From a phage, in the NCBI GenBank assembly GCA_012112355.1, contig GCA_012112355.1_3028.1: a stretch of DNA of 64,000 nucleotides; one strand, 5' to 3'. This document shows positions 22,433-59,181 of this stretch, piece after piece. A program made the position numbers and the translations under genes. Under the pieces are notes generated by a model. That model was given only the letters and a program-made list of their open reading frames with translations, did no database searches and had not been told where the DNA came from. Numbering within the stretch: position 1 is the first letter of the stretch; each line of letters opens with the position of its first letter.

Positions 22433-24610
22433 TTAGGCCGCAAGGGCCTTCATAGTTTTAGCGATTTGGGAAACTTCATCATCACTTAAAGAGTTGCGAT
22501 AACCGATGAAGTCGGAAACAATACGGAATTTCTTGGTAAACTCAGCAACCATTTTATCACTATTTTTTGAAGCATTACGTGATAATTCATCAAAGAGATT
22601 AGTTACTGTCCAGATATCATGACCGATGGTATCTTTTCCACCATTGAAATACACACCGCGTAATGAACTAACCATATTACCAAGTCGTGTATATTCTTCA
22701 GAAACTTCATCTGTACTGAAGTACTTCATCATAAAATCTAGTTCAGGATACTTGATAATTTTATCAATATATCGTTGAGCTGAACTTGAATAACCTACAT
22801 ACTTATCATAATCTACATCATCAAAAGCATCTACATATAAATCACGTAAAGCTTCAAAAATACATTGGCACTGACCAAGCTCTTTTACCTTTTTCTGCAA
22901 AAGCGGACGAATAACATAAAATTCATTAATGCCAATAAGATTAGCCATACGAATCAAAATATTCATAGATGGATGACAAAGCGATGTAGTACCATCCATA
23001 GAGAAAATATCAGAACGATGCATATACGCTACATACCCAGTAATTTCATCTGCTTCTGATGTGAGCGTAAATAATTCCTCTTTTTCCCAGCGCCCGTCTT
23101 TAATTTCAAACTTAAATGCTGTAGCAGCTTTAGGACGAGGAGCTTTACTTTTAACTATCTTTGGAATATAGCTTTTAACTAAAGCTTCAATTTCTGACAA
23201 ATAATGAATGTTAACTTCATCACTTTCAAACATCGCCATAATATCAGGAAGCAAATCAATCTGCGATTCTACTTCTGGATTAATAAACAGAAGGCGTTCG
23301 TTGTGATGAATATTCAAAGTGTTATTAAATTCACTATCATCTAACGCATGTGCTAATCCACGGACAATATTAACACGATTTTTAATATTATCAATAACGA
23401 TATTAATTTTTGTTGCATTAATACCAAACAGACGATAACTTGATGCAACGGCTGAAGTTTCATGACTTTGCTTAATGCGCTTCAGTCGAGGGTCAAGATT
23501 TACTTCATACACAACTCCTGCATTGCATAACTTACTATCAGGTTCAAACATGCTCTGCATTTTCTTATATGACAGATTTTTAGTCGTGAATTTGACTGAA
23601 TTACTAATCATATAATCTCGAGCAGAATACCCCATCTTCATCAATTCACGATATGTATGACGAGGAGATGTAGATTCTTTAAATCGTTTTACATCTTCAT
23701 TAAATGCTTTCTCACTGAGTTCTTTAACTCGTTCAATGATATTTTTACGAGTGCGATCATCTAGTGAAAGAGCCTCGCGAGATGGAGCAATATCAAGTGA
23801 ACCCATTGGAAACTTAATGTAATTCACTTCATTGCGAATGCTTAGCCAGTTACGGTCTCTAATAACACCATCGATAGGATAAACAATACCGCCATAGATA
23901 GCATATAATCCACCACGATCAGGCCAGTATCTTTCTGGATTTACACCATAATAATCATCAAAATCAGGAAAATAATCAATTTCGCGGTCAAGACCATTAA
24001 TGATAGCCAAATCTTTGAACGGTCGCATGATATAAGAAACTTCATAAGCAAAGTTTCTAAAGTCTTTTTCTTCAACTGGAACTACGATTTCAATACCAGT
24101 TTTATCATCTGGACCCATTTCTTTTACGAATGTAGGTTTAATCTGTGGGCCATCACCATCCATGTAAGCTACATAACCACGAATTTCACCTTTATGATAA
24201 GAAGTAATACTAAATGTATCAGTATAACTAAACGGAGATTTAGAACCTAACCCAAATCCGCCAATGAAATCGTTAGATTCAGCCTTAGATGAACTGAAGT
24301 ATGAATTATACAAACCAGGAGAATTATCATCACCCTGAATATCAAAATCACTCATACCCGGACCAAAATCTCGACAAACAAATCGTGGATCTAATCGTCC
24401 TGGAACTTGAATGATAAATTTTTCAGGATTTCCATTAAGTGCATGAGCATCAATCATGTTAGTAATCAATTCACGGACTACTGCGCGAATCTTGTTTGTA
24501 TACAAATCAGATGATAGAATTTTAAATACTTTAGGATTTGCTGCGATGCTAAATGCTTTTGATTTAGAACCATTACCAAGAATTGTTTCTTTTTCAGTGG
24601 TGATAATCAT
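22433..24610 (-). CDS. rIIA: rIIA protein (GHKL-ATPase-like N-terminus)
   Basis: 725 aa as T4 rIIA; [56 protein letters not shown]. Confidence 0.9.
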
Positions 24611-24620
24611 AATTTCCTCA

Positions 24621-24824
24621 TTAATTCATATTACGTTTAATAACTTCAGCAACTTCTAGTAGTTCATCTTTAGTTGCGGTGTCGGATTGAATTTTATCTC
24701 TAATATCCTTAAAGCGGTTTTTAAATTCTTCGGCTTCTCCCATATCGAAAAAGCGTTGAATGATTCTATATTCTCGATGAACTGCTTTATCAAAAAGTTC
24801 TAAATTTACTTTATATGATTTCAT
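24621..24824 (-). CDS. hypothetical protein (rIIA.1-like position)
   Basis: 67-aa ORF immediately upstream of rIIA with an early-type promoter. Confidence 0.5.
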
Positions 24825-24849
24825 TCCAATATCCTCATTTGCCCAATTA

Positions 24850-24879
24850 ATTATACCACATCCTTGTGGTAAAGTAAAC
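24850..24879 (-). promoter_or_regulatory. T4-type early promoter (GTTTAC, 18 nt, TGG-TATAAT) inside the 3' end of gene 39
   Basis: Minus-strand sense GTTTAC-tttaccacaaggatgtgg-TATAAT. Confidence 0.45.
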
Positions 24880-26699
24880 TACTGGCTCATCCATTCTTTA
24901 CGAAGGTCAGCATTATCTCCCATGAGCATTTCAAAAAGCTCTTTCCAGTTCTCAGGAAGTTTAACAACATCATATACCGGATTTTGAATCATCTCACGAT
25001 ATTCAGATTTTTCCAAAGAGCCAAGTCCCTTAATATAACGGATGCTATGTTTAGGTAGAGCATCTTTAGCACTCTCATATTCAGCGACTGTATAAAACCA
25101 TTCTTGTTTTTTACCGACCTGAGCGATGATTACAGGAGTTTTGACAAAGCGAATTCTTCCTTGCTCAAACAATTCTGGCCAATTACTAAAAAATCCGAGC
25201 AGAGAAGGATAAATGCTTCCTAGACCATCATGGTCAGCATCAGTCATAATAGCGATATTATGATAATTCAAGTTTTCAGCTTTTTCACCGAGAACTAATC
25301 CAGTGATTGCGCAAATATCAAATAGTTCTTTGTTTTTAAGCATATCTGCATAAGACATACCCCAACTGTTGAGAACTTTACCACGTAATGGATAACCACC
25401 ATGAAGTTCTTTATCACGAACATCAATAAGATATCCGATAGCAGAATCACCCTCAGTCAAGAAAAGAGTAGTGTCAGCATCTTTACCGCAAAGATTCGCT
25501 TTGATATGTTTATGAACCTTAGCTTTAGAAGCCTTTTTAGCTGCTTTAGTTTCTGCTGCTTTTTCTGCCGCCAATTTACGAGCCAAAGCAGCTTCGATAA
25601 TCGGCATTAGAATTGCTTCATTATTTAGAATAGCGCGTGAAATCTTTTTAGCATCAAGTTGAATATGACTACGGATTTCACCAAATGGAGAAGTCAAACG
25701 CTCTTTAGTTTGAGAATCAAATCGCATGTTTTTCATATCACGAACAAACATAACGATAGTCAAACATTCTTTGACACGTGCTTTAGTTACATCAATTTTG
25801 AACTTACGTTTGATTTGTGGAATAAGGTCTTCACAAATATCATCCATAACACAGTCAATGTGATGGCCACCATTCTTAGTGTGAATGTTATTGACGTACG
25901 TCAACTGACGAAAACCATCCGGTGAACGACCAACCGCAATAGAACAATTTTCTTGTTCTTGAACAATAGCATGTTCATCATACTGTCGTGCATATTTCTT
26001 AAAATTGCCCTGAACCTTTTTACCATTAAAGGTAAATTGAATATCAGGATAAACAACAGCAAGTGTTTGGAGACGATCTAGTGTAATGTCAAGATAAACT
26101 TGGGACAGCTCATTAGTTTCAAATGACATAAAATCAGGAATGAAAGTAACACGGGTTCCTTTCCATTTTCCAGGAATATCTTCCCATGATTTATTTTCCA
26201 TGCCGTTTGAACAACGAACTACAATATTATTTTGACCATCACCAGTTTCACCGACAAACATCACAGAAAAAATGTTTGTCAAACTAGAACCAACACCATT
26301 CATACCGCCAGTGACGCGTTCTTTATCATCACCGAAGTTACCACCCGCTTTTGGAATAGTCCAAGCAGCAACTGGACCAGGAATTTCTTCACCGGTAGGT
26401 GTTTTAACCATCGCTTGTGGAATACCGCGACCGTTATCTTCAACTGTTACCTGATTATTTTTAATGGTAACATTAATTTTATTCGCGAATTTAAACTTAG
26501 TACGAATACCTTCATCGACTGAGTTATCGATAATTTCATCAATAAGCTTAACAAGACCAGGTACATACTGAACACTTTCCCATTTACCAAACAGAAAGCG
26601 CTCATGCATTTCATTAGCAGAAGAGCCAATGTACATGCCACTACGCTTTTTGATATGTTCAATATCGCTCAGAATTTTAATTTCATTCTTAATCATCAC
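24879..26699 (-). CDS. 39: DNA topoisomerase II large subunit (GyrB-like), single uninterrupted ORF equivalent to T4 genes 39 plus 60
   Basis: 606 aa; MMIKNEIKILSDIEHIKKRSGMYIGSS N-terminus. T4 splits this into gp39 and gp60 with a translational bypass; here it is one continuous ORF. Confidence 0.85.
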   Translation of the reverse strand: MMIKNEIKILSDIEHIKKRSGMYIGSSANEMHERFLFGKWESVQYVPGLVKLIDEIIDNSVDEGIRTKFKFANKINVTIKNNQVTVEDNGRGIPQAMVKTPTGEEIPGPVAAWTIPKAGGNFGDDKERVTGGMNGVGSSLTNIFSVMFVGETGDGQNNIVVRCSNGMENKSWEDIPGKWKGTRVTFIPDFMSFETNELSQVYLDITLDRLQTLAVVYPDIQFTFNGKKVQGNFKKYARQYDEHAIVQEQENCSIAVGRSPDGFRQLTYVNNIHTKNGGHHIDCVMDDICEDLIPQIKRKFKIDVTKARVKECLTIVMFVRDMKNMRFDSQTKERLTSPFGEIRSHIQLDAKKISRAILNNEAILMPIIEAALARKLAAEKAAETKAAKKASKAKVHKHIKANLCGKDADTTLFLTEGDSAIGYLIDVRDKELHGGYPLRGKVLNSWGMSYADMLKNKELFDICAITGLVLGEKAENLNYHNIAIMTDADHDGLGSIYPSLLGFFSNWPELFEQGRIRFVKTPVIIAQVGKKQEWFYTVAEYESAKDALPKHSIRYIKGLGSLEKSEYREMIQNPVYDVVKLPENWKELFEMLMGDNADLRKEWMSQ

Positions 26700-28615: not shown

Positions 28616-29035
28616 TTATGCTAAAGCTGCTTCGCACCATTTTTTAATTTGGAATTCAGGAACTACCATGAACTGGCCTGCAAAAACAATATTGTAGAGC
28701 TTGACACCATCTTCTACCCAACGGTCCGAAATAAAACCAGCGACTTGATTCGTTGTCCATGGAGTTCCATCTGTTGCTGCCGCAATTGTGAATTTATGGT
28801 CTTTTACAACTAAAACTGAAGAACAAAGTTTCCATTTAAATGCGCTTTCTTCTGGCTCAATGAACTGACTTGAGACATAACCAATGTTACCATCAGCGTC
28901 ACGAACTTTAACCTCGTTACGACCAAAAACTGGATCACTTACAGAAAGAACTTCAACCAGCTTTCCTGCAACTTTAGAACGAGAAGCAACGGATACATAT
29001 ACGTAATCACCAGTAGAGAGATTTACAATATTCAT
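28616..29035 (-). CDS. paralog 1 of a three-member family (motB-region position)
   Basis: 139 aa; shares the C-terminal motif FISDRWVEDGVKLYNIVFAGQFMVVPE with the two ORFs upstream. Confidence 0.5.
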   Translation of the reverse strand: MNIVNLSTGDYVYVSVASRSKVAGKLVEVLSVSDPVFGRNEVKVRDADGNIGYVSSQFIEPEESAFKWKLCSSVLVVKDHKFTIAAATDGTPWTTNQVAGFISDRWVEDGVKLYNIVFAGQFMVVPEFQIKKWCEAALA

Positions 29036-29044
29036 AATAATTCC

Positions 29045-29521
29045 TTAAGCTTTACGAGGAGAAGCATAACGAGTGATTTCAGATTCTTCAACAACCCGGA
29101 AGTCACCTAAGAATACGATATTGTATAGCTTTTTACCGTCTTCAATCCATTGGTCTGTGATGAAGCCACACATCCTATCAGTTTTACTTGGACCAGCGAA
29201 ATCATCAATATAATCGAATTCTTCATCAGTTACAAATTCAACGCCTTTACACAACGCCCATTTAAATTGTGCATTAGACTCAGTGGATTCAACTTCTTCA
29301 ACAGAAGTAAAATGAGAGCTAACACGAGTTTCCAGAAATTTAGGACTTACGTAAGCGTACTGAGTTTCAGTTTTTCCAGAACTAGGAATGATTCGAACTT
29401 TAACTTCTTTAACACGACCAGTACCATTAGTACGAAGTCCTACCACTTCAACTAGACGACCTGCAGCTTTAGAACGAGATGCAGATGATACACGCTTAAT
29501 TTCACCAATATTAATAATCAT
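29045..29521 (-). CDS. paralog 2 of the same family
   Basis: 158 aa; FITDQWIEDGKKLYNIVFLGDFRVVEE; N-terminal SASRSKAAGRLVEV similar to paralog 1 (SVASRSKVAGKLVEV). Confidence 0.5.
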   Translation of the reverse strand: MIINIGEIKRVSSASRSKAAGRLVEVVGLRTNGTGRVKEVKVRIIPSSGKTETQYAYVSPKFLETRVSSHFTSVEEVESTESNAQFKWALCKGVEFVTDEEFDYIDDFAGPSKTDRMCGFITDQWIEDGKKLYNIVFLGDFRVVEESEITRYASPRKA

Positions 29522-29565
29522 AGTTATCTCTCACTTGTTAAAAAGATTTTATACTCCACGGAACC

Positions 29566-29595
29566 ATTATACTCTGGTCCCAAGAGTTTGTAAAC
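29566..29595 (-). promoter_or_regulatory. T4-type early promoter (GTTTAC, 18 nt, TATAAT)
   Basis: Minus-strand sense GTTTAC-aaactcttgggaccagag-TATAAT upstream of paralog 2. Confidence 0.4.
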
Positions 29596-30032
29596 TAGCT
29601 TACACGAACATTAATCACTGCGCTGCGAGGAACTACAGAGTACTCTCCAGCATGAACTACGTTCAGAAGTTCAACACCATCTTCAATCCACTGATCAGTC
29701 ACCCATCCACCCACAGGATTCGCGAATGGACGACGAATATAAACTGCCTTACACAGCAGATCAGTTGGATCTTCAGGTTTTTCAATTTCTGTCAATAGAC
29801 TAAAATCTTTTTCATAAATAATAAGCGGTGATACCATTCCATAATAGTTTCTAATTTCAATATACATCATACCGATAAGAATTCCGCTATTAACACTAAT
29901 AACAGTAAAAGGATATCCGCCAGTTAAACCAAGAAGTTCACAAAACTTATTATGAGCTGTATTAGACAGTACCGAAAAATTCTTAATTTCATCAAATTTT
30001 TTCAATTGATAAACAGCATTATTTTTAATCAT
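29595..30032 (-). CDS. paralog 3 of the same family
   Basis: 145 aa; C-terminal WVTDQWIEDGVELLNVVHAGEYSVVPR. Confidence 0.5.
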   Translation of the reverse strand: MIKNNAVYQLKKFDEIKNFSVLSNTAHNKFCELLGLTGGYPFTVISVNSGILIGMMYIEIRNYYGMVSPLIIYEKDFSLLTEIEKPEDPTDLLCKAVYIRRPFANPVGGWVTDQWIEDGVELLNVVHAGEYSVVPRSAVINVRVS

Positions 30033-38639: not shown

Positions 38640-39157
38640 TAATAACCTCGGTCTTGACGAGCGAAGTTTTCAGCATTTTTCAGGTAATAAAGTTTAAAGA
38701 TTTCTTCAGCCGACATTCCAAGAGCAATAAATTTATTCATGAAAAAGTGAAATTGGTCAATCAGTTCAAATTTAATTTCAAGCTGATCTTCAGGAGATAA
38801 GTCTTGAATTTTCTTGGATTGCATTTCAGAATAACGTTTCTTCCAAGGTTTCCATACAGCAGAAGCTTCTTTTTCACCATTACTCATACCACCAAGAGAA
38901 GTATATAGCTCGCGAGTTTCGTCTGCGATATAATCGTCTTGGTTTCGCAGCCAAGCAAGAACTTCTCCTGCAGTTTCAAGTGAATCAGGATGACGATTTG
39001 TTTCTGGTTTATCATTAGCCAAACGAATCTGTAAATGCCGCTGCATGTCAAGCATAACCTGCAATGGGTCAATACTGTGCATAATATACTCAGCATATGC
39101 ACGATTTGCTTTATCAACACCTTCGATCAAATGAGCACATTCATTAAAGTGAGCCAT
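38639..39157 (-). CDS. 56: dCTP pyrophosphatase gp56 (MazG-like)
   Basis: Track ORF 38639..39250 is over-extended; from the internal Met (MAHFNECAHLIEGVDKA...LQVMLDMQR...EIFKLYYLKNAENFARQDRGY) ~172 aa, matching T4 gp56. Confidence 0.85.
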   Translation of the reverse strand: MAHFNECAHLIEGVDKANRAYAEYIMHSIDPLQVMLDMQRHLQIRLANDKPETNRHPDSLETAGEVLAWLRNQDDYIADETRELYTSLGGMSNGEKEASAVWKPWKKRYSEMQSKKIQDLSPEDQLEIKFELIDQFHFFMNKFIALGMSAEEIFKLYYLKNAENFARQDRGY

Positions 39158-39228: not shown

Positions 39229-39429
39229 ATGGTACAAAAATTAATGGCACTTGTTAATGCCATAAAAGGTAATAAAAAACGTATAGCTTTTACTATTTCT
39301 GCTATGGTAGGAATTTTACTCTGGAACTTTATTTTATCACCAATTGCAATTGCGCATGGTGTTAATATTCCAGTAGTTACTCTTGATACATTTGTAGATT
39401 TAGCATTTGCTTTAGTTGGGTTGATTTAA
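39229..39429 (+). CDS. hypothetical small membrane protein, the only plus-strand ORF in the minus-strand early region
   Basis: 66 aa, two hydrophobic segments; AAGGAGG seven nt upstream of the ATG; stop overlaps the gene 61 stop on the other strand. Confidence 0.45.
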   Translation: MVQKLMALVNAIKGNKKRIAFTISAMVGILLWNFILSPIAIAHGVNIPVVTLDTFVDLAFALVGLI

Positions 39430-40454
39430 ATCTTAGCATATTTAGATAGCCGCATTTTAGCCATCAACCCCTGGGCAATATTATTTTTCATATATTCCAT
39501 AATTTGTTCAGGGGTTGCACCTTCCTTTCTAATCATATCATTAACATCTTTAGATTTCCAGGGAGATTTATCCCAAAACATAATCCTTTCTCCTGCATCA
39601 ACTAATTTAGTCATTCGTTTGATAGTGTCAGGGTGACGAGGTTCATTATCTAAAACCCACACTCGTCTATCTTTAAATGGAACAACTTCTAGGTCTAATT
39701 GACCACCCGTAATAGCTATACCATTTTCAATAAAAAGTGAATCTATAGGTCCTTCTAGAACATATACATCACCATCTTTAACTCGTTCGACTCCATATAT
39801 TTTTGTTGCCTCAGGATAAGCTTTAATGGTGATATATTTTTGAGGAGCATCTTTCTTTAATGCACGTCCTTGAAAAGACTCAGCTTTTCCATTAGCATTA
39901 TAAATTGGAATAACAAGACGAGGCTCAGAAATTTCCTTTTTGTATGTTCCTGGTGCTATGCTATTAACTAATTTAGGCCATTCGGTTGTAAACCAAAGAT
40001 ATTTCCATTTATCATTTGGAATACAACGAGCTTTTACATATTTTATAATTGGATGGTCTTCCGCCAGTTTATCTAATCTAACACATGACGGAAGAGATTT
40101 AATTATTTTCTTCTCAGGTTGTTTAGGAAGTTCTTTAGGTTTTTCTACTGGACGACTTTTACCTTTTTCTTTTCTTATTTCAAAGATATACTCACGATAT
40201 AAATCGGGTTCAAACTCCTTTAAATATATTCCGATTGGTGCATGATAGTTACAGTTATAACAATGAATATTTCCTTCATTATTATCACCATAATACCATC
40301 CACGAGCTTTATTCTGGTCGGTTTTTGAATCTCCACAAACAGGGCATCTAAACCGCAATTTAAAAGTTGAACTATTATTTACTTGTGTGAATTTAGGTAA
40401 ATGAGTTAATGCACGGTATGCAAACTCATTATCAATCCAAGGTATTGATGACAT
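39426..40454 (-). CDS. 61: DNA primase gp61
   Basis: 342 aa as T4 gp61; N-terminal zinc-binding CPVCGDS...CYNC followed by a TOPRIM region. Confidence 0.9.
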   Translation of the reverse strand: MSSIPWIDNEFAYRALTHLPKFTQVNNSSTFKLRFRCPVCGDSKTDQNKARGWYYGDNNEGNIHCYNCNYHAPIGIYLKEFEPDLYREYIFEIRKEKGKSRPVEKPKELPKQPEKKIIKSLPSCVRLDKLAEDHPIIKYVKARCIPNDKWKYLWFTTEWPKLVNSIAPGTYKKEISEPRLVIPIYNANGKAESFQGRALKKDAPQKYITIKAYPEATKIYGVERVKDGDVYVLEGPIDSLFIENGIAITGGQLDLEVVPFKDRRVWVLDNEPRHPDTIKRMTKLVDAGERIMFWDKSPWKSKDVNDMIRKEGATPEQIMEYMKNNIAQGLMAKMRLSKYAKI

Positions 40455-43905: not shown

Positions 43906-44268
43906 TTAAAAGAATTTAAATTTTTTCTTTGACCTTTTATTAAATGCATCTTGCAGTTGCATTGTAATACATTTTTCTACATGAGGAGCTAACTCAGCTT
44001 TTCTTTCTTGGTCAAGAACAGCAAAGTCCATTACAACCTTTCCATCAACCCAATCCAGTTTTGTTACATACACAATGTGTGTAGAACCATCTTCTAGTTT
44101 AATGACAATCTCCTGGATAACATTTTCCATAGCGGATTTAATTATCTTAAGAGATTCATTAAAAAGACGTTCTTTTCTTTCTTCTTCCCCCTCCGAAGAG
44201 GGGGATTCATCGATAATTTCTAGATCTAAATCTAAATCATCTTTATTCATTAAATTCTTCCATATCAC
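43906..44268 (-). CDS. 40: head vertex assembly chaperone gp40
   Basis: ~114-120 aa ORF between uvsX and 41 as in T4. Confidence 0.65.
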   Translation of the reverse strand: MIWKNLMNKDDLDLDLEIIDESPSSEGEEERKERLFNESLKIIKSAMENVIQEIVIKLEDGSTHIVYVTKLDWVDGKVVMDFAVLDQERKAELAPHVEKCITMQLQDAFNKRSKKKFKFF

Positions 44269-45424
44269 TTAACTGCTCGAGGTCAGTTTCTAAATCAGCA
44301 GCTGATTTACTTTTACTTTCTGGAGATTTAAATTTTTCAACCTTTGAGTTAATCAATTCATCAACTTCAGCTTCAACAATTTCATTACTATCAATAGCAC
44401 CTAACTGATAAGCACGTTTAATAGCATCTCGGAATGGTTGATGCTTAAATAAAGGACCCCAGAATGTAGTGCAGTTGGTATCTTTTGCACGCCAAGATTT
44501 TTCTTCGCGAACCATCTCGCCGGTTTCTTCATCAAGAAATTCACGAGCATACCAGCCATTTTTAGGTTTTACCACGAATCCTAATTCTAGAGCCATATCT
44601 AACAATCCAGAATAAGGATCGATACCACCGTCAAATTTAACATCAATAAAGAATTTACTTTTTTCTTTAACGGTACGAGATTTTTCTACATTTAGAACAA
44701 ATTGATACCCCTGAAGATCAGAACCATCTTTAATTTGACGTTTACCGATAATGAATACAGTATCAGCCGAATACATTACGCCTGTACCACCTGTCATCAC
44801 GGTTTTACTAAACATTTCAATGGTTTCAATTGTATGGTTAACCGCAACGCACGGAATATTTTTAATGCTAAAATAAGGAGTAACAATACGGAATAATGAC
44901 TTCAGTGATTTAGCACGAGTCATATCTGCCACAGATTTTTCATTCAAGGCATCTTCAGTTTCTTTCTTAGAAGCCATATTACCAATTGAGTCGATGAATA
45001 CAATAACCTTTTCACCACGCTCAATAGCTTCAAGCTGGTTCACCATATCAATTTTCAGCTGTTCAACTGACTGAATCGGCGTATGAATTACTCGTTCCGG
45101 GTCAACTCCCATGGATCGCAAATAAGCTGGAGTAATACCAAATTCGCTATCATAGAATAGACAAACCGCGTCAGGATATTTGTTTAAATATGCCGCAACC
45201 ATAGTCAAAGACATATTTGATTTAAAGTGTTTAGAAGGCCCTGCGAAAATAGTTAAACCAGACTGCATACCGCCATCAATCGCACCAGAAATAGCGATAT
45301 TAAGCATTGGGATTTTTGTACGGATTACATCCTTTTCATTAAAGAATTTAGATGTAGTCAGTTCAGCAGTCATTTTAGAAGTGGAAGCTTTAATCAAACG
45401 GGATTTTAAATCTGCAATAGACAT
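44243..45424 (-). CDS. uvsX: recombinase UvsX (RecA-like)
   Basis: 393 aa; MSIADLKSRLIKASTSKMTAELTTSKFFNEKDVIRTKIPMLNIAISG...GPSKHFKS (Walker A). Confidence 0.9.
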   Translation of the reverse strand: MSIADLKSRLIKASTSKMTAELTTSKFFNEKDVIRTKIPMLNIAISGAIDGGMQSGLTIFAGPSKHFKSNMSLTMVAAYLNKYPDAVCLFYDSEFGITPAYLRSMGVDPERVIHTPIQSVEQLKIDMVNQLEAIERGEKVIVFIDSIGNMASKKETEDALNEKSVADMTRAKSLKSLFRIVTPYFSIKNIPCVAVNHTIETIEMFSKTVMTGGTGVMYSADTVFIIGKRQIKDGSDLQGYQFVLNVEKSRTVKEKSKFFIDVKFDGGIDPYSGLLDMALELGFVVKPKNGWYAREFLDEETGEMVREEKSWRAKDTNCTTFWGPLFKHQPFRDAIKRAYQLGAIDSNEIVEAEVDELINSKVEKFKSPESKSKSAADLETDLEQLSDMEEFNE

Positions 45425-45501
45425 TCATTTTTTCCATAGGCATCATTATATTTTCCTCACTGGTTAAAGATAGAGTAATTATAACACAATAAATTTAGGC
45501 A

Positions 45502-46350
45502 TTAATCAACTGCTATCGGATGAATAGCATTAAACTTATGAAATGCTTCTGATTTTTCTTTGCGCGAAACACACATGCGAAGAACCTTTAATGGCTCGTC
45601 TTCTTCACCCAACGATTTTCGTTTTTCAATATTCGATGTTTTCCAACGAGCTTGCTCTGGAAACTCTCTATTGATTTGCTCGAGCGCTCTATTATGTTTA
45701 GAATTACTACGAATTGAACTGCACCCGCCAGGAGCTTGTGCTTTTCCAGATACAACCAGATATTTGAACAAGGCCAAATGCGGATAACCTTGATTAATTA
45801 AATTGAGAAATGCATACATATCTTCGCATAAATCAATTTTTCCATACCCAATTTGTTCTGTCGTAAGTTTTCCGAGGTCATACCATGTATTCGTGAATCC
45901 ATATGAATTTTCACGATAATTACCCCAAGATGAAGTAATTTTAAAAATAGGTAGACGAGCATGGCCATGATAATACCCACAATCCATGGCATCCTCAACA
46001 TATTGAATCAATTCATAGAACTGTTCACGGGTTAATTGATTGACTTTATCTACACAACGACGGTCATCTCTTTTTCGCATTGAACTCATACGAATAGTAG
46101 TATCATCGTCAATCATCCAGATTCGTTGACCTGCATACATATCAGTAATTGCTTTACGAGTACCAGCAATTCCATTTACATCGTCAGGAATAGTTATAAT
46201 TTTAGCTCTAGACCCATAGGCATCATAATAAGCTTTTTCTTCATGTTCACGCACTACAATATGGGGTTCATAATTAGTCGGAAACATATCAAGGGCAGAA
46301 ACTGCCCCGACACGCTGATAACTTGGAATTACGAATTGAATCATTTCCAC
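45502..46350 (-). CDS. DNA glucosyltransferase at the bgt locus; probably the T2/T6-type beta-glucosyl-HMC-alpha-glucosyltransferase rather than T4 beta-gt
   Basis: 282 aa between uvsX and 42. T4 beta-gt is 351 aa with a different N-terminus, so this is not T4 beta-gt; family assignment is by position and size. Confidence 0.5.
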   Translation of the reverse strand: MEMIQFVIPSYQRVGAVSALDMFPTNYEPHIVVREHEEKAYYDAYGSRAKIITIPDDVNGIAGTRKAITDMYAGQRIWMIDDDTTIRMSSMRKRDDRRCVDKVNQLTREQFYELIQYVEDAMDCGYYHGHARLPIFKITSSWGNYRENSYGFTNTWYDLGKLTTEQIGYGKIDLCEDMYAFLNLINQGYPHLALFKYLVVSGKAQAPGGCSSIRSNSKHNRALEQINREFPEQARWKTSNIEKRKSLGEEDEPLKVLRMCVSRKEKSEAFHKFNAIHPIAVD

Positions 46351-47081
46351 TCACCTTTATAGTCTTTTTTCACAATATGAGTTTCGCCAGTATTCCACCA
46401 ATGATCAACCAAGTAAAAATGACGAGAATATACATGAAGACTTCCAACATTCCATATAATAGAACCTGCTTTATACTGACGAGTTGAATCGCCTGCATTC
46501 AAATCAGATACTAATTTATCTAATACGTATTTTTGCCATGCATAATCATTACGGAATCCGAAGACCACGTCATTTGAGCGCATGCTTACTACTGCATTGA
46601 CTTTCTTATCACGAATCAGGTACTGTACTGTATTAGTACACATGAAATCTGACATACCATCTTTATTGTAGTCAAATTGCATGGATGGACGAGTATAAAT
46701 CATGATACCACGCCGAGAATCAGGATTTTGACCAAGTTCAGCTAAACACATATCATACTGGGCATAGTTATCTTCTGACCAAATAGCCCAACCATAATTC
46801 GAGTTAATTTCGCCTTTAGAAGATGCTACCTGCTGCCAAATCTTTGGTGTTTCACCTGGAATATCTTTAACAAACAAGCTCTTAGATTTATACCATTCAA
46901 GTTCGCGCTGAATGTATTCATCATTAAGAGCACCAAAAATAAACGGTTCATCTGCTACAAATGATGCGCCAATAATTTCAATAGTTTTAACACCAGTTTT
47001 ATCAACTACGAAATCTTTTTCTTTTAATGCAAGCCCCAAATGAAGACGGATTTCTTCAACTGTCATAGAGTCACTAATCAT
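46341..47081 (-). CDS. 42: dCMP hydroxymethylase gp42
   Basis: 246 aa as T4 gp42; thymidylate-synthase-like fold. Confidence 0.85.
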   Translation of the reverse strand: MISDSMTVEEIRLHLGLALKEKDFVVDKTGVKTIEIIGASFVADEPFIFGALNDEYIQRELEWYKSKSLFVKDIPGETPKIWQQVASSKGEINSNYGWAIWSEDNYAQYDMCLAELGQNPDSRRGIMIYTRPSMQFDYNKDGMSDFMCTNTVQYLIRDKKVNAVVSMRSNDVVFGFRNDYAWQKYVLDKLVSDLNAGDSTRQYKAGSIIWNVGSLHVYSRHFYLVDHWWNTGETHIVKKDYKGEWK

Positions 47082-47085
47082 TTAA

Positions 47086-47238
47086 ACCTCAATTGATACA
47101 TTCATATTTAACTTGTAACAGTAATAAACCCCAACCTAAAATAATAGTTGGAATCATAAGAGGAACCGTTACACTATAGTATATACTTATTATAATCATC
47201 AAGATTAAAAGCAACACTGTTATAATTTTGCTTTTCAT
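47086..47238 (-). CDS. small membrane peptide (~49 aa), below track cutoff
   Basis: Manual translation MKSKIITVLLLILMIIISIYYSVTVPLMIPTIILGWGLLLLQVKYECIN; coordinates approximate (my hand indexing and the track disagree by 1 nt here). Confidence 0.3.
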
Positions 47239-47884: not shown

Positions 47885-48121
47885 TCAAATGCAAGTAGTA
47901 ATTACTCCAGTAGTGCTTATGCAGGTATTACCCATTTGCACACCTAAAGATCCATTTGTATTCACATGAAGATTATCATCAATTTTAACTGATATTTTAC
48001 CATTAGTGTGAATAACAGTGCTAGATTCAATCACAGGTTGAGTATCATTTTCAACACTAACAAATGGAACTGCTGCTAATGCAACTAAACAAACTGCTAA
48101 GCATCCCATAACAATTTTCAT
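47885..48121 (-). CDS. predicted secreted small protein
   Basis: Track ORF 47885..48175; likely start at the internal ATG (MKIVMGCLAVCLVALAAVPFVSVEN signal-like N-terminus), because a promoter element overlaps the N-terminal extension. Confidence 0.45.
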   Translation of the reverse strand: MKIVMGCLAVCLVALAAVPFVSVENDTQPVIESSTVIHTNGKISVKIDDNLHVNTNGSLGVQMGNTCISTTGVITTCI

Positions 48122-48153
48122 TTTATTCTCCAAATCCGTATTAGTTGATAGTT

Positions 48154-48183
48154 GTATAGTACCATGGAAGAACATTCTTGTAA
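48154..48183 (-). promoter_or_regulatory. T4-type early promoter
   Basis: GTTTAC-aagaatgttcttccatgg-TACTAT on the minus strand. Confidence 0.45.
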
Positions 48184-57961: not shown

Positions 57962-57979
57962 TAAAGGGCCGAAGCCCTT
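57962..57979 (-). terminator. hairpin (aaagggc-cgaa-gcccttt) downstream of a-gt
   Basis: GCCGAAGC stem-loop followed by a T-rich run, overlapping the a-gt stop. Confidence 0.45.
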
Positions 57980-59181
57980 TATTTTGTAATAATGTCAAAT
58001 TGCTCTTTAAAGCAGAAGCTTGAATCTTGATGCTGATACAAAAATTCATACGCTTTTTCTCGCTCACGGTCATAAAGAGCTCGGTCAGATGACAGTTCTT
58101 TAATACGCTCGAATGTTGATTCCATATCATTTTCATCAAACCAAACGATACCGCTATCATGCGAAATTAGCGGAGTATTATCAACACGGAATTTTAAATT
58201 TTCGCCAGTAGATTTCCAAAATACCGGAATTGTTCCACATGCACCAAGCTCGAGATGAGTATATTCTAAAGAGCGCTGTAGATATTTTTTATCCAACTTA
58301 CTCAACTGATAACCAAATCCGGATTTACTCATACGTTCAAGCATTTCGCTATTTACATAACGGTCAAGAATTTGCGTTGGCAAATTAGGAGCAATTTTAA
58401 TTTGGTCTACTTGATGAAGACGATAATACTCGTATGGAATTCCTTTTTCTTTAATAGGAATGAACGCTGGAGAACGTTCCAGACCTTCCATAATAGTACT
58501 TAGTCCTGCAGGTTTAAGATGTTTTTCATGAAAATCAAACATCTGATAAAAACCTTTCCATGTAGTCGTACGACCAATCCAACGGTTGATATTCATGTTA
58601 ATTTCAGAAACATCTTTCCAGTAAGTTGACCGAACCTTCGCAATATCCATAGGAGGCTGAAAGTTATATACTGTCGGTGCTTCTTCAATATCATCAAACA
58701 GAGAAACAGTTTCTGGATACCATTCTTTCATCAGAACTTTATTAAAATCACCATTATCAGAATGGCTAAAAATAACATCAGCTCGACGAACAGTTTCTTC
58801 TAATCCCAAATTTCGACGCAAAGAAAGAGAAGAATGGTCATGCTGATAAACTACAACACGAACCGAAGGTTTAATGTTATCAATAATTTTTTTATAGTTA
58901 TTAATAGTGTCTTCTTCAACCGAAGTAGCAGGAACTGAATTGATAATTAGAATATCACAATCATTTACCAGCTTAAGTGTTTTATCATATTCTTTTGCCA
59001 ATAAAACCGGAATTGAAAATGATTTATAATCATGCGCGCAATTACGAGTAAATGATTTATCTTTAGCATAAACCAAAGTCACTTCATGACCATTTTTAAT
59101 AAACCAATCACGTTGCTCGAGTGAGAATTTTGTTACACCACAACCTTCAAGACCTCGAGCCATAAAAATACATACTTTCAT
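57979..59181 (-). CDS. a-gt: DNA alpha-glucosyltransferase
   Basis: 400 aa as T4 alpha-gt; MKVCIFMARGLEGCGVTKFSLEQRDWFIKNGHEVTLVYAKDKSF. Confidence 0.85.
   Translation of the reverse strand: MKVCIFMARGLEGCGVTKFSLEQRDWFIKNGHEVTLVYAKDKSFTRNCAHDYKSFSIPVLLAKEYDKTLKLVNDCDILIINSVPATSVEEDTINNYKKIIDNIKPSVRVVVYQHDHSSLSLRRNLGLEETVRRADVIFSHSDNGDFNKVLMKEWYPETVSLFDDIEEAPTVYNFQPPMDIAKVRSTYWKDVSEINMNINRWIGRTTTWKGFYQMFDFHEKHLKPAGLSTIMEGLERSPAFIPIKEKGIPYEYYRLHQVDQIKIAPNLPTQILDRYVNSEMLERMSKSGFGYQLSKLDKKYLQRSLEYTHLELGACGTIPVFWKSTGENLKFRVDNTPLISHDSGIVWFDENDMESTFERIKELSSDRALYDREREKAYEFLYQHQDSSFCFKEQFDIITK

Follow-up and report, generated by a model that had tools for sequence, protein, structure and literature searches.

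A probable T2/T6-type beta-glucosyl-HMC-alpha-glucosyltransferase gene at the uvsX-gene 42 locus of a Tequatrovirus-like phage

The open reading frame between uvsX and gene 42 in the 64,000-nucleotide stretch of phage DNA analysed here (hereafter the window; contig GCA_012112355.1_3028.1) is very probably an ortholog of the beta-glucosyl-HMC-alpha-glucosyltransferase of phages T2 and T6, which goes under the names ggt, ba-gt, g-gt and TAGT, and we are similarly confident that it acts in the pathway proposed below. Neither the gene nor its family nor its position is new, and the biology that surrounds it is already established to the point of being textbook material; the cloning of ggt from T2 and T6 dates back decades. 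The present analysis bears directly on the identity of the gene, its family, its fold class, its synteny and its partners in the pathway.

Homology searches placed the encoded protein in a single, well-populated family. It matched PHROG 842 ('beta-glucosyl-HMC-alpha-glucosyltransferase') with an E value of 2.4e-89 over residues 2-277, and it scored 38.4 bits against Pfam PF20691 (TAGT, 'TET-associated glycosyltransferase'), for which the gathering cut-off is 27.5 bits, spanning profile positions 3-205 of 205. NCBIfam contains no model for ggt or alpha-gt. The proteins of Shigella phage JK38, in which it is annotated as this very enzyme, and of Escherichia phage EO1 are identical to that of the window at 280/280 residues, while those of the Durham phages TB37 and Solly are identical at 279/280, the sole difference being D24N. 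An earlier note on this DNA, made from the sequence alone, had suggested a second-glucose enzyme of the T2/T6 type and named a BLASTP comparison with the T2 and T6 proteins as the check. That comparison came out positive, with 277/280 residues shared with T2 (98.9% over the full 280 aa) and 98.5% identity to T6 over the 261 aa annotated there; over 280 aligned columns, T6 shows five differences. The suggestion is further upheld by the JK38 and PHROG matches. A tblastn search of 50,697 phage records recovered copies of ggt in 689 of them, 473 at an identity of at least 95%, and most of the 689 records carry the gene annotated as beta-glucosyl-HMC-alpha-glucosyltransferase or glucosyl transferase.

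The arrangement of the locus distinguishes the window from T4 (Table 1). In T4, the interval between uvsX and gene 42 holds segA and b-gt, whereas the spacer that separates ggt from uvsX in the window is short enough to leave no room for that pair. The first reading of the sequence had remarked on an N-terminus unlike that of T4 beta-gt; in fact the unlikeness runs along the whole length of the protein, with no sequence similarity to T4 beta-gt detected (best BLASTP E = 2.2) and with PF20691 as the only family found for the window ORF, as opposed to PF09198 (325 bits) for T4 b-gt. Searching the 64-kb window by tblastn with T4 beta-gt revealed no beta-gt (best E = 1.4), and equivalent searches with T4 SegA and T2 Dam returned no match in the window to segA or dam. 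None of JK38, wV7, teqdroes, EO1, TB37, Solly, T2 and T6 appeared among the best 60 beta-gt-bearing phage records. Tequatroviruses resembling JK38, wV7 and teqdroes share 97.8-98.4% identity with the window.

Table 1. Features of the window that bear on DNA hydroxymethylation and glucosylation, and neighbouring genes, with coordinates in the window.
Feature	Coordinates	Strand or position	Remarks
Gene 56, dCTPase	38642..39157	-	97.7% identical to T6 gp56 (tblastn)
Gene 61	39429..40454	directly after gene 56	98.2% identical to T6 gp61 (tblastn)
uvsX	44243..45424	downstream of ggt in the direction of transcription	90% identical to T4 UvsX; Pfam T4_UVSX_C and RecA
Spacer, ggt stop to uvsX start	45425..45501	-	77 nt, identical in T2, T6 and TB37
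Predicted ggt / ba-gt / TAGT CDS (beta-glucosyl-HMC-alpha-glucosyltransferase)	45502..46344	-	280 aa from the most likely start, ATG 46344; stop codon 45502-45504
Gene 42, dCMP hydroxymethylase	46341..47081	-	97% identical to T4 gp42; Pfam thymidylate synthase family
Shine-Dalgarno-like GGTGAG	46350..46355	-	5 nt upstream of ATG 46344, within the 3' end of gene 42
a-gt, DNA alpha-glucosyltransferase	57979..59181	-	400 aa; PF11440, 784 bits, E 2.4e-236, positions 1-355 of 355

The possession of alpha-gt and ggt without beta-gt, which had been anticipated as the T2/T6 combination, agrees with the published arrangement in those phages. TAGT is syntenic with T4 beta-GT, and Tequatroviruses with alpha-GT and TAGT and no beta-GT have been described as 'like T6' (PMC13390438), while the pairing of alpha and beta enzymes seen in T4 is rare, occurring in 6/753 genomes (PMC13216743). 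The T4 enzyme and ggt are encoded at the same position, between uvsX and gene 42, and both draw on UDP-glucose to form a beta-glucosidic linkage in modified phage DNA; they differ in fold (GT-B for T4 beta-gt, GT-A for ggt), in acceptor (bare 5hmC as against alpha-glucosyl-hmC) and in length (351 aa as against 280 aa), and the T4 locus also has segA, which that of the window does not.

A third type of locus was observed in some E. coli Tequatroviruses, where a homolog of beta-gt, sharing 55% identity with T4 b-gt, adjoins a TAGT with 96% identity to that of the window. Records with both genes include OR539218 (vB-Eco-KMB26, with the beta-gt homolog at 23132-24199 and the TAGT at 24211-25053), MZ234030, MZ234053, MK327936 and PP418986, among others, and the same adjacency occurs in T4-like phages of Enterobacter, Salmonella and Citrobacter, with the TAGT approximately 65% identical. 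Annotation of this locus is also inconsistent. Proteins that are 96-100% identical to T4 b-gt are mislabelled 'beta-glucosyl-HMC-alpha-glucosyl-transferase' in KM607002 (RB55), KM607003 (RB59) and PP434423, and the ggt of T2 bears the gene name 'b-gt' in LC348380. Product names at the ggt/b-gt locus are thus unreliable, and the sequence family should be used in their place.

Other parts of the window contained small ORFs of note. A 49-aa hydrophobic ORF (47089-47238, minus strand) lies between gene 42 and imm, and a 96-aa ORF (47885-48175, minus strand; 78 aa in relatives) lies between imm.1 and gene 43. For both, T4 has no annotation, and JK38, EL, Geo, TB37 and Solly carry counterparts labelled hypothetical. 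Further away, at 28616-30032 on the minus strand, there are three tandem paralogous ORFs of 139, 158 and 145 aa with a common C-terminal motif of approximately D-x-W-[IV]-E-D-G-x-[KE]-L-[YL]-N-[IV]-V-[FH]-x-G-x-[FY]-x-V-V. Alignment with JK38, the closest relative, is poor in this region, where JK38 has two 167-aa hypothetical genes between motB and dexA.

The open frame of the candidate ggt is unbroken from 45502 to 46350 on the minus strand, and in the ORF list of the window it was read from a GTG as 282 aa. The position of this ORF and its order between uvsX and gene 42 were given correctly in the earlier note, although it is the minus strand that carries the gene, and its length of 282 aa probably requires correction to 280 aa. 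The most likely start is ATG 46344-46342, the third codon of the mechanical ORF, which overlaps the TGA of gene 42 (46343-46341) as ATGA. This overlap is also present in T2, the T6 sequence around it is identical, and an 843-nt, 280-aa ggt beginning at the same ATG is annotated in T2, JK38, EL, Geo, BGP, TB37 and Solly. A start at GTG 46350 was dropped as a candidate in view of the ATGA overlap, the spacing of 5 nt between GGTGAG and the ATG, and the length of 280 aa given in the records of T2, JK38 and the Durham phages. The overlap further suggests that translation of ggt may be coupled to that of gene 42. A scan for sigma-70 promoters and for terminators around ggt returned 17 sites against 18.6 expected from shuffled sequence, and thus no excess.

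Comparison with the two classical phages reveals few differences in the protein itself. The T2 gene (MH751506 22285..23127, AYD82639) resembles that of the window in its 280 aa, its slot between uvsX and gene 42, its ATGA overlap and its accompaniment by a T2-type alpha-gt; it departs from it by R11H, P251S and the presence of D where the window has N24. The T6 gene, ba-gt or g-gt (MH550421, AP018814), is the genetically characterised member and belongs to the same family and locus, its product differing from that of the window by Y40N, D55G, R106H and, again, a D at position 24. Both T6 records have unusual features within the gene. In MH550421 codon 10 is a TAG in frame, and the gene is annotated from M20, giving 261 aa, while AP018814 is without one codon of the invariant DDD79-81 and gives 279 aa. 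These features could represent stock-specific mutations, a history of growth in suppressor hosts, or errors made in sequencing the GAT repeat.

The lesion-like features of these laboratory T6 records (the TAG at codon 10 and the loss from DDD) invite the question of whether ggt in the window might be a sequence-intact but silent relic, either unexpressed or non-functional in its phage, particularly as T6 deleted for ba-gt is viable (PMC11078745) and the gene can evidently tolerate damage in culture. We regard this as scarcely credible. The window copy is free of stops and frameshifts and has all of its invariant residues intact, the ATGA coupling and the Shine-Dalgarno-like motif are conserved, and the protein is identical in phages that were isolated independently. 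A functional ggt remains much the preferred reading.

The partners that such an enzyme would need are also encoded in the window. The product of gene 42 makes 5-hydroxymethyl-dCMP, the root of the modification pathway, and the gp56 dCTPase keeps unmodified dCTP out of phage DNA. Genes 56 and 61 of the window have no dam between them, and the same is true of TB37, Solly and JK38; dam is present in T2, EL, Geo and BGP. The T4-like alpha-gt that had been recognised from its sequence proved to be genuine, matching the full PF11440 profile and being 91% identical to the proteins of T4 and T6, 99.0% (396/400) to that of T2, and 397-398/400 to those of TB37 and Solly. This gene exists as two discrete alleles, approximately 91% identical to one another, whose differences are concentrated in residues 47-118 and 221-298. 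T2, TB37, Solly, JK38 and the window share the first allele, and T4, T6, EL and Geo the second. Such a distribution resembles allele exchange by recombination and does not depend on which ggt allele is present.

A structural model of the window protein pointed to the same family of enzymes as the sequence searches. The first strand, beta1, comprises residues 3-7 ('QFVIP') and is followed by S8-Y9-Q10-R11, with beta4 at residues 74-77 leading into D79-D80-D81, a motif that is invariant in the alignment of homologs. As modelled, this order of secondary structure elements is the canonical GT-A donor-site layout. The protein fits a GT-A fold that bears a conserved acidic motif of the DXD type, and it does not fit a GT-B fold with two Rossmann domains. 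The C-terminal half of the model is of poor confidence, the pLDDT falling under 50 for residues 125-151 and 204-211, so that the acceptor-binding side is unmodelled; the moderate pLDDT is attributable to the shallow alignment behind the model, which consisted of 11 cluster representatives. An AF3 model of the T6 TAGT was likewise assigned to GT-A, as a sister to GT2, while alpha-GT and beta-GT are both GT-B (PMC13216743). Enzymes of the GT2-type GT-A group, such as the cellulose synthase BcsA, TarP/TarS, GlfT2 and chondroitin polymerase, share with ggt the nucleotide-diphospho-sugar transferase fold, the beta1 'IPSY' motif and the acidic DDD/DXD after beta4.

For the catalytic chemistry of the enzyme, the linkage that it forms, the proportions of its products and the resulting defence phenotype, close relatives and the literature are our guide, and the window phage would be expected to resemble them. 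T2 and T6 have no b-gt, and their ggt adds a beta-linked second glucose to alpha-glucosyl-5hmC (bioRxiv 10.64898/2026.02.25.707755, PMC13390438). When T6 is without ba-gt/g-gt, gentiobiosyl-hmC is lost and approximately 75% alpha-glucosyl-hmC is found (PMC11078745, bioRxiv 10.64898/2026.02.25.707755). On the strength of these T6 deletion mutants and of 98-100% protein identity, the window enzyme is predicted to use UDP-glucose as donor and to attach the glucose to alpha-glucosyl-hmC through a beta-1,6 linkage.

The proposed pathway would begin with gp42 and gp56, which together would secure 5hmC in the phage DNA. The alpha-gt would then place an alpha-linked glucose on approximately three quarters of the 5hmC, and ggt, translated from its ATG and probably coupled to gene 42, would add the second glucose to the first to give gentiobiosyl-hmC. 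The formation of a beta product from the alpha-linked UDP-glucose donor implies a reaction that is probably inverting, going by the fold class and by established GT-A enzymology, and the same enzymology suggests metal dependence from the DDD motif, with DDD79-81 the probable site of metal binding. In the finished DNA, gentiobiosyl-hmC would hide alpha-glucosyl-hmC from enzymes that recognise the latter.

The TAGT family is nonetheless a broad one, with solitary TAGTs in 288/753 genomes and others paired with beta-GT (PMC13216743), so that the acceptor may differ from member to member, and the near-identical TAGT that lies beside a beta-gt homolog in some E. coli phages, at 96% identity, belongs to the latter kind of genome. 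Such breadth would accommodate a specificity other than that of the T2/T6 enzyme, in which the window protein acted directly on bare 5hmC or used another sugar donor, as the 'solitary' TAGTs of phages that have neither alpha- nor beta-GT may do. At 98-100% identity to the proteins of T2, T6 and JK38 we find this highly improbable. Furthermore, the enzyme of TB37 and Solly, just one residue different, gives gentiobiosyl-hmC and leaves approximately one third of the 5hmC bare, which argues against activity on unglucosylated 5hmC.

The amount of second glucose varies widely among phages that carry the gene. DNA of T2 has approximately 70% alpha-glucosyl, 5% gentiobiosyl and 25% bare 5hmC, and that of T6 approximately 3% alpha-glucosyl, 72% gentiobiosyl and 25% bare 5hmC (bioRxiv 10.64898/2026.02.25.707755; PMC13390438). 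Measurements of TB37 and Solly DNA gave approximately one third 5hmdC, two thirds alpha-gentiobiosyl-mdC, a trace of the alpha-glucosyl form and no beta-glucosyl form, while in EL, Geo and BGP the 5hmdC, alpha-glucosyl and gentiobiosyl forms stand at roughly 1:2:2 (PMC13390438). The presence of ggt does not, then, fix the extent of diglucosylation, as T2 and T6 lie at opposite ends of this range with enzymes that are approximately 98% identical. Our best prediction for virion DNA of the window phage is approximately two thirds gentiobiosyl-hmC and one third bare 5hmC; alpha-monoglucosyl-hmC should be scarce and beta-glucosyl-hmC absent. DNA like that of TB37, Solly and T6 is predicted because the ggt allele and its neighbourhood match those of TB37, Solly and JK38 and not those of T2: across 38-62 kb of the window, identity was 97.9% to JK38, 97.8% to TB37 and 97.4% to Solly at 99% coverage, and dam is missing from the window as it is from these three. 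The D24N substitution was dropped as a functional difference from TB37 and Solly, given that the column is variable (D, G or S in homologs) and that JK38 and EO1 carry the same N as the window.

The sequence of ggt itself offers a clue to the low level in T2. The T2 protein departs from the common Tequatrovirus sequence by R11H and P251S only, and both substitutions, which are private to T2, recur unchanged in seven records of T2 and in SV76 and do not occur in its nearest relatives teqskov and AdolfPortmann. In the alignment of homologs, R11 is invariant and adjoins the 'IPSY' donor-site motif, and P251 is nearly invariant; the positions of the two changes suggest that the low gentiobiosylation of T2 may reflect a hypomorphic enzyme. 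The window ggt keeps R11 and P251, as does that of every high-gentiobiosyl phage examined. The allele of EL, Geo and BGP is defined by I50V, M89I, R95K, C97R, V101I, A202S and Q203H.

The same gene could still have a T2-like outcome in the window phage, in which second glucose is added at a few per cent of sites and the DNA behaves as if alpha-monoglucosylated, for example in being fully sensitive to Brig1 in vitro. T2 is itself a precedent, with an intact ggt and very little gentiobiosyl-hmC, and the window shares with it the T2-type alpha-gt allele (differing at just four of 400 residues) as well as an overall identity of 97.4% across 38-62 kb. Set against this resemblance, TB37 and Solly have the same T2-type alpha-gt and still reach approximately two thirds gentiobiosyl-hmC, from which it follows that the level is not dictated by which alpha-gt allele is present, and the R11H and P251S changes that are private to T2 are missing from the window enzyme. 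We therefore consider a T2-like outcome unlikely. Control of the gentiobiosyl level by the alpha-gt allele was also dropped as a general explanation, since alleles do not track phenotype: the T2-type is found in T2 (5% gentiobiosyl) and in TB37 and Solly (approximately 67%), and the T4-type in T6 (72%) and in EL and Geo (approximately 40%). It is possible, and we put it forward tentatively and with more doubt than conviction, that the ggt allele, rather than the presence of ggt or the alpha-gt allele, sets diglucosylation, with the window T6-like and T2 a natural hypomorph through R11H and P251S. If so, these two private changes would explain the sparse gentiobiosylation of T2 DNA, which has been known for a long time.

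The earlier note had also held that this combination of genes determines which host restriction systems the DNA resists, and an effect on the defences resisted is backed by work on T6 deletion mutants (PMC11078745; bioRxiv 10.64898/2026.02.25.707755). Deletion of ba-gt leaves T6 with alpha-glucosyl-hmC alone, raises its sensitivity to the Brig1 glycosylase and makes its DNA degradable by that enzyme in vitro (PMC11078745). BapA takes no glucose off T6 DNA, yet does so from T6 deleted for g-gt (bioRxiv 10.64898/2026.02.25.707755), and GmrSD targets both glucosyl isomers as well as the gentiobiosyl form (PMC13216743).

The DNA of the window phage would be expected to contain gentiobiosyl-hmC and no beta-glucosyl-hmC, with bare 5hmC accounting for roughly one quarter to one third. 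Gentiobiosyl DNA is resistant to Brig1 in vitro, yet T6 is still restricted by it in vivo, and a similar outcome may hold here. BapA would be unable to strip the glucose of gentiobiosyl-hmC, the fraction of bare 5hmC would stay a target for Brig3, and type IV enzymes of the GmrSD/BrxU kind would still cut DNA bearing gentiobiosyl-hmC and bare 5hmC. The type of gene found at this locus thus tells annotators and developers of phage therapy which sugar decoration to expect on the DNA.
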